DNA of 64,000 bases from Candidatus Hermodarchaeota archaeon (GTDB lineage: Archaea > Asgardarchaeota > Lokiarchaeia > Sigyniarchaeales > SOKP01), in the NCBI GenBank assembly GCA_048885525.1, contig JBHLLP010000005.1:14335-78334 (forward strand), read 5' to 3'. Under the pieces are notes generated by a model, which was given only the letters and a program-made list of their open reading frames with translations, did no database searches and was not told the DNA's origin. Numbering within the stretch: the stretch's first letter is position 1; every line of letters starts with the position of its first letter. A program made the position numbers and the translations under genes. This document shows, in pieces, positions 35,650-64,000 of the stretch.

Positions 35650-36687
35650 ATGACGCAAAACCAGATTTTATGTATTACTTATTTTGACCAAGTAATCGGT
35701 CCTAGCACTTTATATTCAAGTGAACCATTAGTTAAAAGCATAGATACACCTGATATAAATCGAATTCTTGAATTCAACGATGAGGAAGGCACTTTCATTT
35801 TTGCTTATAGAAAGTTTCAAACAGTTAATCATATCTTTCACATTGAATCAGAATTAGCTCGGGGGGGCAAAGATTTAATGATGATTACTTATATGATCAA
35901 AACAGCGATTTTCAAGGATGAAATCGTAGATGTGTTCAAATATTTAGATTCTAAAGCACCAGTTTTAGAAGAATTTGCTTCTGAGATTAGTAAATTAAAT
36001 GAATTAACAACAATTCTACACACAAAGAAGAGTGCTATTACTGGTGAATACACTTTAGAATTAGCTAATGAGGAACTAAAACGTAATTTTTTGGACATAT
36101 TCAATAAGTATTTTGAAAAATTAGCCCCTAAATACCGATTAGAAACCCCTATAAGGGATAAACGTCTTATAAAGAAAATTTTTATAATTGGGGCTCCTAG
36201 AGCTGGTAAAACAACATTTTTAAAGAATATTGAATTAATACAATTTTTAAATATTAAAAGAAATGATTTACCAAGTAGGATTTATGAAGTTGTTATTGAA
36301 AATCTCGAAATTTTACAATATGACGATGAGATGAGAGAATTCGAATGTAAAGATTTTGAGAATTTAGAGAATTGTGTTAACTTCGCGCAGGGATTTATCA
36401 TACTTTTTAATTTATCAGATAAAAATTCAATTATTCTCACAAAGGAAATTTTCAAAATAGTTGATAATACACGATTAAAAATTGAGACTGAATTGGCACC
36501 AATTTTAATTATAGGAAACAAGTTTCATGATAAGGAGGATTTTGACCAAGAATTTATTAATGAAACATTTGAAATTAATGAATTAAGGGAACTTGGTATC
36601 AAGATAAAATATTTTCCTATAAACATTTTAAAGGAAGACGAAAAAGTTATGAAAGCTATACGCTGGTTAATACGAAAAATTGTGTAA
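35650..36687 (+). CDS. Longin/uDENN-like domain fused to a small GTPase-like domain
   Basis: N-terminal ITYFDQVIGP...ARGG longin/uDENN-type motif; P-loop GAPRAGKT, GFIILFNL, ILIIGNK. Confidence 0.75.
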   Translation: MTQNQILCITYFDQVIGPSTLYSSEPLVKSIDTPDINRILEFNDEEGTFIFAYRKFQTVNHIFHIESELARGGKDLMMITYMIKTAIFKDEIVDVFKYLDSKAPVLEEFASEISKLNELTTILHTKKSAITGEYTLELANEELKRNFLDIFNKYFEKLAPKYRLETPIRDKRLIKKIFIIGAPRAGKTTFLKNIELIQFLNIKRNDLPSRIYEVVIENLEILQYDDEMREFECKDFENLENCVNFAQGFIILFNLSDKNSIILTKEIFKIVDNTRLKIETELAPILIIGNKFHDKEDFDQEFINETFEINELRELGIKIKYFPINILKEDEKVMKAIRWLIRKIV

Positions 36688-57678: not shown

Positions 57679-58206
57679 TTATATATAAAAATTAAGTTCT
57701 TCAACACAAACGTCTTTCTCAGCATCATTTCCAAGAAAATTTATCTCTATTTTCTTTATATTATCTCCCAATAATTTTTGGAAAACAGTCTCAAAATATC
57801 CCTTATTAATCCTGCAAAATGCTTTTCCATAATCTAGTTTTTCCCGATGACTTATTGGTTTACGTAAAAAGCAATGATTTTCAATGACAATTCTATATCG
57901 ATCATTATATTGTTCAACATCTCGAACTTGGATTGAATAAAATTCTTTTAATTCATCCATTAGAATTACAAGAGCTTCCATTATCTCAAACTTTTCTTTT
58001 CCATATTCCTTTTTTATTCTATTTGCAATAATTGTCCCTGGATGGACTCCTGTTTGATATAGAATCGAAAGCAAGCTATTACGACCAAAAACATCATAAA
58101 CTTGATAGACTAACGATTCAGATATAATTTCGAATCCTTTGACAGAATCAATATTATCAATTGGATTGTATATTCTCTCATTTAACTCCTTTTTATATTC
58201 TTCCAA
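57679..58206 (-). CDS. V4R-like small-molecule/metal-binding domain protein
   Basis: LYQTG...ENHCF...FCRINKGY...CV: Cys spacing typical of V4R-like domains. Confidence 0.6.
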   Translation of the reverse strand: MEEYKKELNERIYNPIDNIDSVKGFEIISESLVYQVYDVFGRNSLLSILYQTGVHPGTIIANRIKKEYGKEKFEIMEALVILMDELKEFYSIQVRDVEQYNDRYRIVIENHCFLRKPISHREKLDYGKAFCRINKGYFETVFQKLLGDNIKKIEINFLGNDAEKDVCVEELNFYI

Positions 58207-58332
58207 TATAGAATACCCCTAACTTCTAAAATTTAGTTTGAGAACTATTCAATATCTTTTTAATAATTATTAGCATTTGATCTATTTAAAAACTTAATTC
58301 AAAAAAAAATGTTAATTATTAAAGAATAAATA

Positions 58333-58548
58333 TTATAAGATTGCGGTTTTTCGCTGGAACAAGAGTATACCCAGAAGAATTAAGCATATTCCCCATATGA
58401 AAATAAAGATCAAATTTAATCCAACTGGATCAAATGCCATACTACCATGAATCATTACAGCTCCCATGACTTCTGCTGCTAAAGATGTAGGTATAAAATC
58501 TACAAGTGGAACTGTAAGTAATCCTCCTAAAAATTCACTTTTATTTAC
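58333..58548 (-). pseudogene. C-terminal remnant of an ABC-2 type permease
   Basis: Stop-to-stop frame VNKSEFLGGLLTVPLVDFIPTSLAAEVMGAVMIHG...IWGICLILLGILLFQRKTAIL*, with no start codon before the homologous part. Confidence 0.55.
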
Positions 58549-58610
58549 TTAAATTTAAATTTTTCTACTTTAAAACAAAAAGAGTATAATGTCTAAATAA
58601 AGAGATAGTT

Positions 58611-59156
58611 TTAATTCATTAAATTATTTAATACTTTTTCAAATTCCTTGTAATCTGCTTCTGTCTCTAAACAAATTGATACATTTCTTAGATTTAAATT
58701 TTTTTCTATAAAATATTTTTTTATGGTTGGCAACATTGTTTCAGCACAAAATTTTGCGGTGATACCACGCATTTCAATAGATAGTGGGGGGATAACTATA
58801 GAGCTTAATCCTTTTTCATCTGCTAATTTTAATGAATTCCATGTGGCTAACATTAATTTCTTTCCCTCGTTTCCTTGACCTGGTCTTGGACCATTCGTGT
58901 GTATAATATTTTTTATGAAATTTCCTCCTGATGTCAATACACATGATCCTACAGAAATCTGAACGATCTTATTAATAATATTATTACATTCAACTTGAAC
59001 TTGTGTTCCAGCTTTTCTTAACACTCTACACCTTAATTCACCGCTAGGTAATAATCTACTATTAGTAGGAATAACGATGGCATCATAATATTCAATGTTA
59101 GTTAAATCTCCTACAAAAATTTCTATAATTGAATTGTTTAACATTATTTGATTCAT
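58611..59156 (-). CDS. Macro domain protein (degenerate active site)
   Basis: VGDLT, DAIVIPTN, TSGG, IIHTNGP, SIVIPPLS. Confidence 0.82.
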   Translation of the reverse strand: MNQIMLNNSIIEIFVGDLTNIEYYDAIVIPTNSRLLPSGELRCRVLRKAGTQVQVECNNIINKIVQISVGSCVLTSGGNFIKNIIHTNGPRPGQGNEGKKLMLATWNSLKLADEKGLSSIVIPPLSIEMRGITAKFCAETMLPTIKKYFIEKNLNLRNVSICLETEADYKEFEKVLNNLMN

Positions 59157-59249
59157 TAAAAATATAACCTAAGAAATTATATATATATCTTATTTTTAAA
59201 AAAACGTACCTAATTTAAAGAAGAACTAGTGTTTATTCATTTCTAACTT

Positions 59250-59729
59250 CTATGACTCATTAATCTCTTTTATTTTTTTAACTGCTTTCTCAACATTTTC
59301 ATCTATAATTCTAAGAACTTTCCTAAAAGTGTCATCTGAAGTATAATAAGGATCAATTATATCAATGTTATGGGTTTCTCCATTAAACTCTTTCAAAGTA
59401 AAAGTTTTTTTTTCAATATCCTTGACATTTAGAAATTTTTGTATTATTTCTTGGGAATATTTGATTTCCATTGTAAGTATTAAATCTTGTTTTTCTAATA
59501 AATGGCGATTAATAATTTTTGGCATAAAGTCTGAATGTTTAATTCCCTTAGAATCCAGATAATTGCGAGATTCTGGTTGTATATAAGAAAAAGCATTAAA
59601 AAAGCCACAAGAATCAAAATTCAAATTAACATTAAGTTTTTCAGCATAATAACGAGCTAAATATTCTGCTGCAGGAGATCTTGCAGTATTTCCTAGACAT
59701 ACAAAGAGAACTTGCTTTATTTTATTCAA
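59250..59729 (-). CDS. Low molecular weight protein phosphatase (LMW-PTP fold)
   Basis: P-loop VCLGNTARS, DLILTM, DIIDPYY. Confidence 0.9.
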   Translation of the reverse strand: MNKIKQVLFVCLGNTARSPAAEYLARYYAEKLNVNLNFDSCGFFNAFSYIQPESRNYLDSKGIKHSDFMPKIINRHLLEKQDLILTMEIKYSQEIIQKFLNVKDIEKKTFTLKEFNGETHNIDIIDPYYTSDDTFRKVLRIIDENVEKAVKKIKEINES

Positions 59730-59849
59730 GATTTATCAAATATAGATAGAAGTATATATCAAATAAAATTTGTGCGAACATACTGACATAAAGATTAAAT
59801 AAAAGATAAGCATAACGAATAATACTGAAATCAATACAATTTAGTCCTT

Positions 59850-61493
59850 ATGAGAAGTGAATCAATAAAAAACTGGTTTATCAAGGTATTCACGAGAGAT
59901 ATCAATTTACCACGAACCAATTTGGCATATTTATTTTTCTCTTTACTTGCTATTACATTAATAGCTGAAGCTTTTTTATTTAAGTATGCGGCTATAACAA
60001 GTGGTGTTTTATTTGTAGATGCAGAGATTTATATCCTATTATTTATACTTGCAGTTAGTTTTCTTATTTCTGGTATAATCATTGATTTCATAAGGAACAG
60101 AACAAAATATTTCAATATGATGCTATTAATTTGTATAATTGGATTATTTATAAGTGCCATTCCGCAAATTTATTTATATTATTTGGGTTTACTAATTATT
60201 CTATTAACGGTACCTCAATTAGTAATATCATGGTTTACCATATTAGTACATGAAACAAATATATTAAATAGAGGTAGATTAACAGCCTATTTGCTGATTT
60301 CTGGTTTTTCGTTAGGATTTATTTCTGTAATATTCATTATTTTTGAATTCTTATACCTCTTGTTAGGGGTTTTGGAATTTGGAGTATTTGCAATTATTTT
60401 TTGGTATTCAAGACAATATAAATATATAGAATCTAAAGAACGATTGAAATCGGAGAGAAAATATTTGAATATAATTTTTGAAAAGCATTTTTTTAGATAT
60501 TCATCTAGTTTTATGGTATTAAGCTTCATTTTAGGAGATTTATTGGCGAGATATAGTTTTCAAGTAGATTTAATGATATATGCAATGGCGTCTTTTGGAT
60601 ATCTCATAGTTGCAGGTTGTTTTTTAGATAATATTGGCCGTAAGACTTCAATAGTGCTAGGAATTTACGTTCTTTCATTTTTTCTTGTTTCTTCTGGTTC
60701 ATACATTGAAGCGGAGTTCATTTTTGGTATGCCAAGAAAAACACTTCTCTCTATTCATTATGGTTTTTCAATATTACCCCTTTTGCTAGCAATTTTAACA
60801 ATATCTGGGGATTTTTCTACAGAACGAGGAAATTTAAAGTTTAGGGGGCGTATAAATGGTCTTTTTATGTCACTATTATTTTTTGGAGCAATAATTGGTT
60901 TTATATTTAGTCATTGGATAAATAATTTATGGAAAGTTTCTTCCATTTTAAATGAATATTTACCAAACATTCCACATCTTTTAAATGGATTTATTCTTGT
61001 TTCTCTTTTAGTTTGGATGATGGCAATGAAAGAATTTCTCGTATCTAAAGAAAAGCAATGGGCAAATTCTCTTAAAAACATTTTTGTTTTTAATAAAAGT
61101 GGAGTTTGCCTTTATAATTACAGTTTTGAACACAAAAAAACAATAGAAGAAGAAACAGATGAATCAGACTTCGATGAAGATCTTATTTCGGGTGCTCTTT
61201 CAGGGATTATTACTATAATATCCGAAATAACTCACAGCAAAAGACAGCTTAGACAAATCCAAAAAGAAGAAGCCACTCTACTATTTACTTATGGAAAGTA
61301 TCATATAGTTGCATTGATAGCTTCTATGGAATTACCAGTTCTTTTTAAAAAGATTGATGATTTTTCAAGAGAATTTGAGCAAAAATTCCAAAAAGAACTA
61401 AAAAATTTTCAAGGCAATATTCAACGCTTCGAACCAGCAAGATTTCTCATAGTAAAGTATTTCAGTCAAAAATTTAATGAGTTTTCAAAATAA
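59850..61493 (+). CDS. MFS-fold polytopic membrane protein fused to a C-terminal longin-like domain (paralogue 1)
   Basis: About 12 TM; MFS motif GCFLDNIGRK, NRGR, RGRING; soluble C-terminus IFVFNKSGVCLY...DEDLISGALSGI...FSREFEQKF. Confidence 0.75.
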   Translation: MRSESIKNWFIKVFTRDINLPRTNLAYLFFSLLAITLIAEAFLFKYAAITSGVLFVDAEIYILLFILAVSFLISGIIIDFIRNRTKYFNMMLLICIIGLFISAIPQIYLYYLGLLIILLTVPQLVISWFTILVHETNILNRGRLTAYLLISGFSLGFISVIFIIFEFLYLLLGVLEFGVFAIIFWYSRQYKYIESKERLKSERKYLNIIFEKHFFRYSSSFMVLSFILGDLLARYSFQVDLMIYAMASFGYLIVAGCFLDNIGRKTSIVLGIYVLSFFLVSSGSYIEAEFIFGMPRKTLLSIHYGFSILPLLLAILTISGDFSTERGNLKFRGRINGLFMSLLFFGAIIGFIFSHWINNLWKVSSILNEYLPNIPHLLNGFILVSLLVWMMAMKEFLVSKEKQWANSLKNIFVFNKSGVCLYNYSFEHKKTIEEETDESDFDEDLISGALSGIITIISEITHSKRQLRQIQKEEATLLFTYGKYHIVALIASMELPVLFKKIDDFSREFEQKFQKELKNFQGNIQRFEPARFLIVKYFSQKFNEFSK

Positions 61494-61678
61494 TAAATAA
61501 TATACTCTCTTAAAACCCTTATTTTAACCTGTTTTAGTGATTTAAGTAATTATAGCAAAGATATTAAATAATAAGAACTTCTAAAAATAGTACAAATAAT
61601 AAAACTTGGCTAAATCTTTTATGTATGAGCGAATAATTTAATTTCATTGAGATTAAAAATAGAGTAATAACAAGAATT

Positions 61679-63349
61679 ATGAAAAAAAGTTTAAGATTTT
61701 GGATCAGTAAAGTATTTGCAAGAGATTTAAATTTAGAAAAAAATTCATTTCTTTATTTATTTTTCTCTTTTCTTGCTATTACATTTGTCATTGAGTATTT
61801 TATTCTCAAATTTATAGTTTGTATGAGGGTAGGATTAGAGAGAGAAATATTTTTCAATTTAACTTTATTTGGGATTTCAATATTTTTCTTAGCTTCTGGC
61901 TTTTTTGTTGATTTCATCAAAAACAAAACAAAGCTGTTCTATTTATCTCTAGTGGTTTGTATATTAGGGCTTTTTTTAATTACATTCGTAAATTTCTCAA
62001 TTAATCTAATTGGATTAGTGATTGTATTGATTACCATACCAGTATTAATCACTGTATGGTGTTCAACATTAGTTCATTCTACAAATATACTAAACAGAGG
62101 AAGAATAGTCGCTATAATTATTGTAATTTGTTATCTTCTCGGATTAATAGGACTTTTTTTTGTTTATTTCGAGAGTTTATTTATTTTTCTTATCGTTATA
62201 GAAGCTTTTCTTTTAATTATTATAATCTGGATTTCACGATTTTATAACTATACTGAAACTGAAAAAAGACTTACATCGGAAAAAAAATATTTCAATATAA
62301 TCTTTGAGAAACATTTTTCTCGATACTCAATTGGCTTTGCTTTTTTAAGTGGACTTCTTGGAGGTTTATTAAATGATACTTTAGGTTATTTTACACCTTT
62401 CGAAGGTTATAAGATTGAGATTATTACATTTTCAATAACATCTATTTTTTACGTTCTTGGTGCTGGTTGGTTTTTTGATACAGTTGGTCGAAAAAACACT
62501 TTGGTTATAGGCATTCTAATTGTCTCATTTTTTTATATAACACATGGCTCATTTTACGAAACTGCCCCTGAATTATCCGTTTTTGGCATATCAAAAGAAA
62601 TTCATATCTCTTTTCACTATGCATTCGCTCTTCTTCCACTTATATTAACAATAATTGTAATTTCTGGAGATTTTTCAACGGAACGAGGTAACTTAAAATA
62701 TAGAGGACGAATTAATGGTCTTTTTATAGCATTAATGTTTTTTGGTCTTGGAGTAGGATATTTATTATACAAAATGATAGAAATTCTTTATAACACGTTT
62801 CCTGATATGAGATCTTGGGTACCAGATGCTCCAAATCTACTTAATTCTTTTGTTTTAGTTATCACTCTAGTTTGGATAATGGCTGGAAAAGACATATTAG
62901 TCTCTAAAGAGCGGGATTGGGCGAAAACATTAAAAAGTATTTTTGTATTCAGTAATAGCGGAGTTTGTATATATAATCATAGTTTCATACGGAAATACCA
63001 ACCTAAAGAAGATGAAGAAGAGTGTGCATTTGACGAAGATCTAGTCTCCGGCGCATTGAGCGGAGTTATTACTATAATATCTGAAATTACTCGAAGCAAA
63101 AAGTATATTAAGAAAATTGACAAAGAAGGAAACCATCTTTTTTTTGCATTCGGAAAATATCATATTGCTGCTTTAATTGCCACTACAGATTTACCTGTTC
63201 TATTCAAGAAACTTGATAATTTTTCACAAGAGTTTGAGCATACTTTTTCTAAAGATCTTAAGAAGTTTCAGGGAAATATTCAGAAATTTGCATCAACTAA
63301 ATATATAATAAGAAAATATTTTAGTCAAAAATATTCAGAATTTTTCTAA
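61679..63349 (+). CDS. MFS-fold polytopic membrane protein fused to a C-terminal longin-like domain (paralogue 2)
   Basis: GWFFDTVGRK, NRGR, RGRING; C-terminus IFVFSNSGVCIY...DEDLVSGALSGV...FSQEFEHTF. Confidence 0.75.
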   Translation: MKKSLRFWISKVFARDLNLEKNSFLYLFFSFLAITFVIEYFILKFIVCMRVGLEREIFFNLTLFGISIFFLASGFFVDFIKNKTKLFYLSLVVCILGLFLITFVNFSINLIGLVIVLITIPVLITVWCSTLVHSTNILNRGRIVAIIIVICYLLGLIGLFFVYFESLFIFLIVIEAFLLIIIIWISRFYNYTETEKRLTSEKKYFNIIFEKHFSRYSIGFAFLSGLLGGLLNDTLGYFTPFEGYKIEIITFSITSIFYVLGAGWFFDTVGRKNTLVIGILIVSFFYITHGSFYETAPELSVFGISKEIHISFHYAFALLPLILTIIVISGDFSTERGNLKYRGRINGLFIALMFFGLGVGYLLYKMIEILYNTFPDMRSWVPDAPNLLNSFVLVITLVWIMAGKDILVSKERDWAKTLKSIFVFSNSGVCIYNHSFIRKYQPKEDEEECAFDEDLVSGALSGVITIISEITRSKKYIKKIDKEGNHLFFAFGKYHIAALIATTDLPVLFKKLDNFSQEFEHTFSKDLKKFQGNIQKFASTKYIIRKYFSQKYSEFF

Positions 63350-63373
63350 ATTTTTATTAAAATAAGTTAACTC

Positions 63374-63868
63374 TTATTCCTCGTTTCTATTAATTTCAAT
63401 AATTTTTTCCATGACCGTTAATACTGCTTTCTCGATCCTCTCTAGAATTTTATTATACTCATCTTGTGGTAGATGAAAAGGATCTTTTATCTCTAAATTC
63501 TCTTTTTCACCAGCATATTCTAATAATAAGAACACTTTATTGTTCAATCCTTTAAAATTCTTAAACTTTCTTTTCAATTTATTTATGTGATGCTTTTGTT
63601 CGAACCCTAAAATCAAATCTTGCTTCTCAAGTAAATGTAAATTAATTTTTTTTGTAGCAAAATCACTAATATCTATACCTTTTGACTTTAGATAATTAAT
63701 TGTTCCAGGCTGAGCAGTTTTGTAATAATGATAGATCCCCGCAGAATCAAATTCTACTTCCCTTAATTCTTTTTTAAACTTAGTTCTTTTTAACCAATTT
63801 GCATATGCCTCAGCAAAAGGACTTCTACAAGTGTTTCCCGCACAGTAAAAAAGAACGTGTTTTATCAT
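63374..63868 (-). CDS. Low molecular weight protein phosphatase (LMW-PTP fold)
   Basis: P-loop YCAGNTCRS, DSAG, DLILG, EIKDPF. ATG 63868 (MIKHVLF) is preferred over the ORF-track start at 63967. Confidence 0.9.
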   Translation of the reverse strand: MIKHVLFYCAGNTCRSPFAEAYANWLKRTKFKKELREVEFDSAGIYHYYKTAQPGTINYLKSKGIDISDFATKKINLHLLEKQDLILGFEQKHHINKLKRKFKNFKGLNNKVFLLLEYAGEKENLEIKDPFHLPQDEYNKILERIEKAVLTVMEKIIEINRNEE

Positions 63869-64000
63869 AGATATTTTTTGGTTTTTCGATAACTTAATTG
63901 GTAATAAATATTTTTTATCAAAAAAGAATTTTGAATAACTCCAAAAGGGAGCAAAAATATACAACAAAACAGAATAATAAAAGATTTTATAATACAGAGT

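Follow-up and report, generated by a model that had tools for sequence, protein, structure and literature searches.

The region examined covers positions 57679-63868 of a window of 64,000 nucleotides (the whole stretch of DNA analysed, to which all coordinates refer) from contig JBHLLP010000005.1 of Candidatus Hermodarchaeota archaeon, assembly GCA_048885525.1. Its translation gives six intact open reading frames (ORFs), listed in Table 1. At the centre lie two tandem genes, here named A and B, each encoding a membrane part belonging to the major facilitator superfamily (MFS) that is followed by a C-terminal tail of about 150 aa with a longin fold. Genes for two low-molecular-weight phosphatases (LMWPs), LP1 and LP2, stand on either side of the pair, and a macro-domain gene and a gene for a 175-aa protein complete the region.

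Table 1. Genes and features of the examined region, in coordinates of the 64,000-nucleotide window.
Feature	Position	Strand	Size or residues	Basis or remark
175-aa protein ("V4R-like" in the first-pass annotation)	57679..58206	-	175 aa	No Pfam hit
Macro-domain protein	58611..59156	-	181 aa	PF01661 at 62.5 bits
LP1, LMW phosphatase	59250..59729	-	159 aa, TTG start	PF01451 at 94 bits
Spacer between LP1 and A	59730..59849	none	120 bp, AT-rich	Sequence
MFS-longin A	59850..61493	+	547 aa	Translation
A, MFS domain (12 transmembrane helices)	59850-61034		Residues 1-395	AF2 model, Foldseek
A, juxtamembrane linker with invariant W404, and longin domain	61035-61490		Residues 396-547	Tail model
MFS-longin B	61679..63349	+	556 aa	Paralogue of A
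B, MFS domain			Residues 1-405	
B, tail	62894-63346		Residues 406-556	
LP2, LMW phosphatase	63374..63868	-	164 aa from ATG at 63868	PF01451 at 87 bits

MFS proteins with a longin tail

The reading of A and B as tandem paralogues of about 550 aa with MFS signatures, made in a first-pass annotation of this DNA, was borne out. The two proteins are 48% identical over their full length and carry the quoted motifs GCFLDNIGRK (G-x3-D-x2-GRK), NRGR, and RGRING, together with the shared elements HETNILNRGR/HSTNILNRGR, Y[LF]NIIFEKHF, and ISGDFSTERGNLK. The AlphaFold2 (AF2) model of A, based on an alignment of 131 homologues, contains 12 transmembrane (TM) helices in a 6+6 arrangement, with a central cytoplasmic loop at residues 187-217 and both termini in the cytoplasm (overall predicted local distance difference test score, pLDDT, 79, with helices mostly at 85-95; predicted template modelling score 0.73). 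Foldseek matched this model with probability 1.0 to NorA, VMAT1/2, YajR, MdfA, and LmrP (E about 1e-7 and TMt 0.64-0.73 for NorA, VMAT, and YajR), and most of the structures that match the whole model best are outward-open or occluded. In profile searches against the Pfam family MFS_1 (PF07690, cut-off 33.4 bits), A had no match and B scored 22-24 bits; more distant fused relatives exceed the cut-off, P0181 with 73 bits being an example, and many homologues carry a precomputed PF07690 hit.

The loops associated with the MFS conformational switch are invariant. These include motif A in loop 2-3 (G75-x3-D79 with N-R-T-K, after TM2) and again in loop 8-9 (G256-x3-D260-x2-G-R-K, after TM8), as well as the RG loops after TM4 and TM10 (loops 4-5 and 10-11). 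A cytoplasmic loop with Y190-x-Y192 is likewise invariant. Between A and B, identity amounts to 74% in the cytoplasmic loops and 62% in the longin domain, against 42% in the TM helices and 16% in the external loops, in agreement with the earlier remark that the cytoplasmic elements are better conserved than the helices. The same holds for the family taken by itself, with invariant columns making up 34-49% of cytoplasmic loops versus 3-15% of TM segments in the family alignment, and 34% versus 3% among 74 family members. Within the membrane, the polar or charged residues E40 (TM1), Q123 (TM4), E176 (TM6), and H303 (TM10) are kept within the clade; when both clades are taken together, Gly and Leu are the only invariant residues there. 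An acidic residue in the middle of TM1 is typical of proton-coupled MFS antiporters of the DHA1 type. The MFS half probably transports some solute, possibly in a proton-coupled manner, and transport is considered still likely because the membrane interior keeps these four residues.

The same data bear on the idea that A and B are transporter-shaped sensors or scaffolds in which transport has been lost, the MFS part serving as a ligand-binding or anchoring module for a longin platform. Such a loss would fit the low identity of the TM helices and external loops, the reduction of the invariant intramembrane residues to Gly and Leu across both clades, and the MFS_1 scores of A and B. However, the conservation of the four polar or charged residues within the clade and the full retention of the conformational-switch motifs argue for a working transporter, and the loss of transport is judged improbable.

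The tail modelled alone (pLDDT 86) follows the order beta-beta-alpha-beta-beta-beta-alpha-alpha, with DSSP segments E13-20, E25-30, H48-66, E74-77, E80-86, E90-96, H101-123, and H129-151. This corresponds to the longin topology beta1-beta2-alpha1-beta3-beta4-beta5-alpha2-alpha3, including both C-terminal helices. A profile built from 145 tails and searched against the PDB matched Trs23 (E 0.003) and TRAPPC1 (E 0.009), the best Foldseek match was likewise Trs23 (3cue_A), and VIA-align gave the highest Z value for TRAPPC4 (13.7 over 131 residues, root-mean-square deviation 3.6 Å), followed by Fuzzy (12.7), Sec22b (12.1), and VAMP7 (11.5). Roadblock proteins reached Z values of about 10-10.9 over only about 100 residues, these matches being shorter because roadblocks lack the two C-terminal helices. 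The A tail stayed below the Pfam cut-offs of Sybindin (PF04099, 21.9 bits, cut-off 25) and Fuz_longin_1 (PF19036, 18 bits, cut-off 26.1). According to the predicted structure and its matches, the fold of the tail is truly that of a longin, with the Bet5/Trs23 type of TRAPP as the closest match; the C-terminal longin of the first-pass annotation stands, and a non-longin C-terminus was not found. The Arf-like protein at 35650-36687, 23 kb from the A/B pair, was also compared, but its N-terminal 175 aa gave an hhalign probability of 0.4% against the tail profile, and no homology is claimed.

A juxtamembrane module and its predicted pairing

An exhaustive search for the tail returned 565 cluster representatives, and 137 representatives carrying this tail type were used to count TM helices. 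A TM helix precedes the tail in 128 of the 137, with nine or more helices in 51, three to eight in 45, and one or two in 32, among the last being proteins whose N-terminal parts are large (lengths of 770-790 aa, 1664 aa, and 2638 aa). The nine proteins without a TM helix are mostly of fragment length. The gap between the last TM helix and the start of the tail has a median of 17 residues, and the commonest carrier of the tail type is the MFS. As judged from these sequences, Asgard membrane proteins carry this longin class as a putative output or adaptor module in juxtamembrane position. A full-text literature search, with most subscription journals outside its reach, found no description of an MFS-longin fusion, and the first-pass annotation had known of none.

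The genome to which the window belongs contains eight copies of the tail. Besides A and B, these are six proteins (L066-L071) with frames of 291, 371, 375, 737, 1929, and 2126 aa, giant surface proteins among them. In relatives of the class of about 780 aa, the TM helix is preceded by a weak MG2-like domain. A count of 41 longins in Loki reportedly goes back to a 2016 study by Klinger et al.

The pairing of the tails was predicted with the A tail and the B tail each supplied with its own alignment. The complex prediction gave a score of 0.68, compared with 0.26 for the best control, and passed a mark that is reached by 58 of 80 solved complexes and by 2 of 110 mismatched pairs; contact agreement between runs was at least 98% and the pLDDT of the partners at least 80. 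The predicted interface is symmetric and is formed by helix alpha1 and strand beta3, the canonical mode of longin and roadblock dimers, and it takes in the invariant residues E459-I460-T461, I470, and K472 (E-I-T and I-x-K). The pairing model supports tail-tail binding. The heterodimer proposed in the first-pass annotation is consistent with this prediction, but not in an obligate form, because most related loci have a single copy and one locus (L033) has a B-type gene only. In the tree, A and B form well-supported sister lineages derived from a duplication (B clade of 15 rows, support 100).

Both the distribution of the tail and its predicted interface are relevant to a simpler view, in which A and B are ordinary secondary transporters whose longin tail serves for dimerisation or autoregulation only and recruits nothing, in the way of the YAM domain of Escherichia coli YajR. 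The intact motif-A loops and RG motifs, the TM1 acidic residue shared with DHA1-type antiporters (a comparison from general knowledge), the high rank of YajR (3wdo) in the whole-model search, with 507 columns aligned, and the location of the tail's best conserved residues at the interface predicted for the dimer are all in keeping with it. However, the same tail, at a fixed spacing, is found on unrelated membrane proteins, including single-pass giant surface proteins, which speaks for a role that is not tied to regulating transport, and in one related genome a longin-only ORF survives at the position of the MFS-longin genes (G099, see below). A tail limited to dimerisation or autoregulation is regarded as rather unlikely.

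The phosphatase-flanked slot and other neighbours

LP1 and LP2 flank the MFS-longin genes in 36 of the 41 close loci, and in almost all of these nothing is inserted between the phosphatase genes and the MFS-longin genes. The order of the block is GNAT, enoyl-CoA hydratase, 3-hydroxyacyl-CoA dehydrogenase, M50-CBS protease, 175-aa protein, macro, LP1, [A, B], LP2, aspartate-oxidase-like flavoprotein, DeoC aldolase, subtilase, YdjM, and ERCC4 nuclease, with the flavoprotein gene present in 32 and the macro gene in 19 of the 41 loci. Synteny across these genomes is equally strong for the entire block of about 15 kb, including its housekeeping genes. The close MFS-longin clade is restricted to one GTDB family and is patchy, occurring in about 8 of 18 genomes of the window's own genus. 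Genomes of the same genus without MFS-longin still keep the block, including the macro and 175-aa genes, and in four of them (G225, G129, G008, and G213) LP1 and LP2 are adjacent on the same strand, 10-55 bp apart. In most genomes of the family, the LMWP genes form a tandem set of two or three with nothing in between.

Different genes occupy the gap in other genomes. Three genomes of another genus of the same family have a CitMHS permease of 430 aa (PF03600, E 1e-52 to 2e-41), one of the three, G183, having a NosD-like beta-helix protein in addition, and G263 has a Sir2 gene. The gap of G099 (L091:1487-1945) holds a 152-aa ORF that matches only residues 400-555 of B, that is, linker and longin, at 51% identity, and represents either what a deletion left behind or a longin gene in its own right. 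Because related gaps hold other genes or none, the LP1/LP2 spacer is a variable slot of which MFS-longin is one of several cargoes. A repeat search over 59600-63500 for traces of mobile elements gave only the A/B paralogue repeats, none of them bracketing the insert.

The loci with the CitMHS, NosD-like, and Sir2 cargoes are L092:1552-2841, L094:721-2016, L095:3640-4935, and L093:1435-2187. The gap behaves as a hot spot for cargo genes on the opposite strand, and the tandem LMWP array itself varies from two to three or more copies, with duplication on the LP1 side (L005, L009, L015, L036, and L038; G008, G168, G141, G261, and G264).

The first-pass annotation had interpreted the same arrangement as a candidate cassette, in which an A/B heterodimer would act as a sensor converting solute binding into longin/GTPase signalling, tuned by dephosphorylation. 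Read as a dedicated unit, this would make the heterodimer obligate and would involve the macro and V4R-like proteins too. The nearly insertion-free flanking by LP1 and LP2, the ancestry of the LP-flanked state, which in the tree is old within the clade, the divergent placing of LP1 and A over 120 bp, and the predicted pairing of the tails agree with such a unit. However, the parts of a cassette would be expected to co-occur and to be lost together, and this is not observed. Genomes without MFS-longin retain LP1-LP2 as well as the macro and V4R-like genes, the gap may instead hold a CitMHS permease, Sir2, or a longin-only ORF, and MFS-longin genes occur without an LMWP neighbour in four close loci (L020, L022, L028, and L034) and in the whole deeper clade. 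In addition, both A-only and B-only loci occur, and the macro gene is absent from about half of the loci. The phosphatase, macro, and V4R-like genes are conserved beside the pair only as part of the syntenic block, and the proposed tuning by dephosphorylation is not supported, the bracket being a variable slot in a tandem phosphatase pair; therefore, the neighbourhood alone should not be used for building a signalling pathway here. The probability of a dedicated cassette is considered low.

The more distant paralogues (deeper clade, 32-36% identity) sit in a second slot, likewise optional, together with the four close-clade members that have no LMWP neighbour. There, the gene order is DUF362-ferredoxin, Ras-family GTPase, HAD hydrolase, a 379-aa protein, sometimes a 351-aa protein, MFS-longin, Roadblock/LC7, Rpb7, DUF359, S24e, Kae1, and Bud32, with the Roadblock gene 25-407 bp downstream of the MFS-longin gene and the Ras-family GTPase about 3 kb upstream. 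This slot is the only hint from the neighbourhood of a link to GTPase machinery. Its neighbours do not depend on MFS-longin, because the window's own genome keeps the block without it, the 351-aa gene on contig C3 directly adjoining Roadblock. The 379-aa (u379) and 351-aa (c351) proteins were also considered as bearers of the tail and were rejected, as neither has one. The loci of this slot are L042-L063 together with the four close-clade loci, and L090 (G000:C3:9000-26000) in the window's own genome.

LP1 and LP2 are paralogues with 44% identity and represent two of the three LMWPc genes of the genome. Both lie above the PF01451 cut-off and have the C-x5-R-[ST] signature and an Asp-Pro loop (P-loop CLGNTARS and D-loop IDPYY in LP1; CAGNTCRS and KDPFH in LP2), which confirms a phosphatase gene on each side of the pair. 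The P-loop is conserved in the orthologues, and the D-loops are of the PTP type, DPYY/DPF[YH]. LP1 has Ala at the position where LP2 retains a second P-loop Cys. Position 5 of the P-loop is Thr in LP1, LP2, and nearly all orthologues, a residue that confers phospho-arginine specificity in YwlE/DARP, most LMW-PTPs having Ile (PMC7772506). The P-loops of LP1 and LP2 match the arginine-phosphatase type, the activity being putative, and the genome that contains the window, which is 99% complete, yielded no McsB-type arginine kinase (PF00217).

A phosphatase-family protein next to a permease also recalls ars-type detoxification units, in which LMWP-family arsenate reductases would accompany an efflux permease. 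Partial NCBIfam matches to LMWP-type ArsC (E 1e-9 to 6e-5), the hydroxyl residue at P-loop position 5, and the permease of the ArsB/CitMHS superfamily in the same gap of other genera point in this direction. However, the ArsC matches cover the N-terminal half only, whereas Wzb/PTP matches extend over the full length, and the permease in question is CitMHS (143-179 bits) and not ArsB (at most 23.5 bits). Thioredoxin-coupled ArsC, such as that of pI258, uses the pair Cys82/Cys89, which is absent from both proteins; the only cysteines are C11 and C41 in LP1 and the two P-loop Cys in LP2. An ArsC identity of LP1 and LP2 was rejected on this cysteine pattern and on the PTP-type D-loop, and a detoxification unit is considered very improbable.

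LP1 and A are divergent, and the spacer between them must hold both putative promoters, as read from the sequence. LP2 is convergent with B, 25 bp apart. Its open frame runs 33 codons further upstream to a TTG at 63967 (63869-63967), an extension covered by tblastn matches of several close relatives at about 75-85% identity, and its true start is uncertain because of these matches.

The macro gene is the only macro-domain gene of the genome. Its product has the loops P-S-G-E-L-R-C and E-M-R-G where MACROD2 (4iqy) has G-G-G-V-D-G and G-I-Y-G, so that GGG is replaced by PSG and G-I-Y-G by E-M-R-G; the pattern of active MacroD-type proteins (N-x6-G-G-G and G-[IV]-[YF]-G) is absent, and "degenerate", the term applied to it earlier, is a fair description. 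The best PDB match is the macro domain of PARP14. Across hundreds of Loki-type sequences (363 homologues), the 175-aa protein keeps an identity of 75-90%, far above its neighbours, with C112, C131, and C167 invariant and H111 nearly invariant, residues that could form a metal site. It has no Pfam hit, and a search of the PDB with its family profile was negative; MsvR gave a weak match in its V4R/C-terminal part (E 0.0035, 17 bits versus a cut-off of 220). It may correspond to the V4R/TRAPPC3-like protein of Loki that the literature discusses (PMC10933270), and the label "V4R-like" is unverified.

Proposed function and comparison with known systems

The reading preferred here, at about an even chance, is that A and B are accessory MFS-fold proteins with a longin-dimer platform, and that the genes for the phosphatases, the macro-domain protein, and the V4R-like protein are positional neighbours rather than dedicated parts. 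In this arrangement, the last TM helix would lead through a linker of about 17 residues with the invariant Trp into a cytoplasmic longin domain, and a longin dimer would hold two MFS protomers together under the membrane, A pairing with B at this locus and homodimers forming where a single copy is present. The conserved cytoplasmic face of the MFS rocker switch would then adjoin the longin platform, and the state of the transporter could be read or set by a soluble partner docking on it, by analogy most plausibly a small GTPase or a roadblock/longin protein. At the level of the genome, the MFS-longin genes would fill a variable slot inside the tandem phosphatase pair. What this analysis adds is the variable slot, together with the second one next to Roadblock and Ras, the polar TM residues that are conserved, and P-loops of the arginine-phosphatase type.

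Several points weigh against this reading. The partner of the tail and the steps of transport and binding are a proposal drawn from analogy. The excess of loop over TM conservation was computed within this family alone and may not be unusual among MFS proteins. The positive pairing prediction may reflect a likeness to solved longin dimers, and homodimers would probably pass as well, since the tails are 62% identical, so that hetero- and homodimers are not told apart. Moreover, the age of the LP-flanked state and the 120-bp spacer shared by LP1 and A leave some room for regulatory coupling to the phosphatases, and transporters make up two of the four cargo types in the gap, a possible sign of a link between phosphatase and transporter.

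Among known systems, the TRAPP subunits Bet5/TRAPPC1 and Trs23/TRAPPC4 (PF04099; 3CUE, 2J3T, and 7B6D) are the best profile and structural matches of the tail, with the same topology and, as in longin/roadblock dimers, pairing predicted through alpha1 and beta3. However, the TRAPP subunits are soluble parts of a multi-subunit Rab guanine nucleotide exchange factor and are not fused to a membrane protein, the Pfam scores of the tail remain below the cut-off, and a partnership with a GTPase or a Bet3-type protein would here be drawn only by analogy. The longin SNAREs Sec22b, VAMP7, and Ykt6 (1IFQ, 4AFI, and 3BW6; Z 10.4-12.1) are also membrane-anchored longins, but they have an N-terminal longin, a SNARE helix, and a C-terminal anchor, whereas in A and B the longin follows the membrane part and a SNARE motif is absent.

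On the side of the transporters, E. coli YajR (3WDO) resembles A and B in having a 12-TM MFS part followed by a folded cytoplasmic domain. This YAM domain of about 65 aa has a different fold, which is not a dimeric GTPase platform. In yeast Snf3/Rgt2 and other MFS transceptors, a C-terminal cytoplasmic extension signals rather than, or beside, transport, which recalls the architecture of A and B. Their tails, in contrast, are long and largely unstructured with short motifs and lack a longin, and the relationship is limited to the MFS fold. The SLC38A9-Ragulator-Rag system, an analogy already drawn in the first-pass annotation, couples a transporter-like membrane protein to a roadblock/longin platform for small GTPases, and the Ragulator roadblock structures 6EHR and 5Y39 match the tail at Z about 10.5. 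However, SLC38A9 has an APC fold and a non-covalent platform of separate proteins, whereas in A and B the platform fold is fused to the transporter.

In the Asgard lineage itself, Tran et al. (2024) modelled a TRAPPC1-like longin from MK-D1 and noted longin-GTPase and longin-TRAPPC3 fusions (PMC10933270). The roadblock, longin, and TRAPPC3-like proteins of that work share lineage and fold class with the tails described here; its text contains neither "MFS" nor "transmembrane", and the membrane-tethered class is not covered. By analogy with these systems, a wider proposal can be put forward, according to which the tail dimers would recruit or regulate Asgard small GTPases at the transporter, as a prokaryotic and covalently fused forerunner of SLC38A9-Ragulator-Rag and of the TRAPP longin core. 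The module would have been reused on MFS, smaller polytopic, and giant surface proteins, and the paralogue clade adjacent to Roadblock and Ras would be a trace of this link. This proposal is speculative and, at present, unlikely.

Asgard genomes encode many small GTPases, longin domains, and roadblock domains, whose targets are unclear in cells without visible internal compartments. A longin class hard-wired at a fixed distance to transporters and surface proteins would suggest a testable place for such platforms, namely the plasma membrane and its solute carriers.

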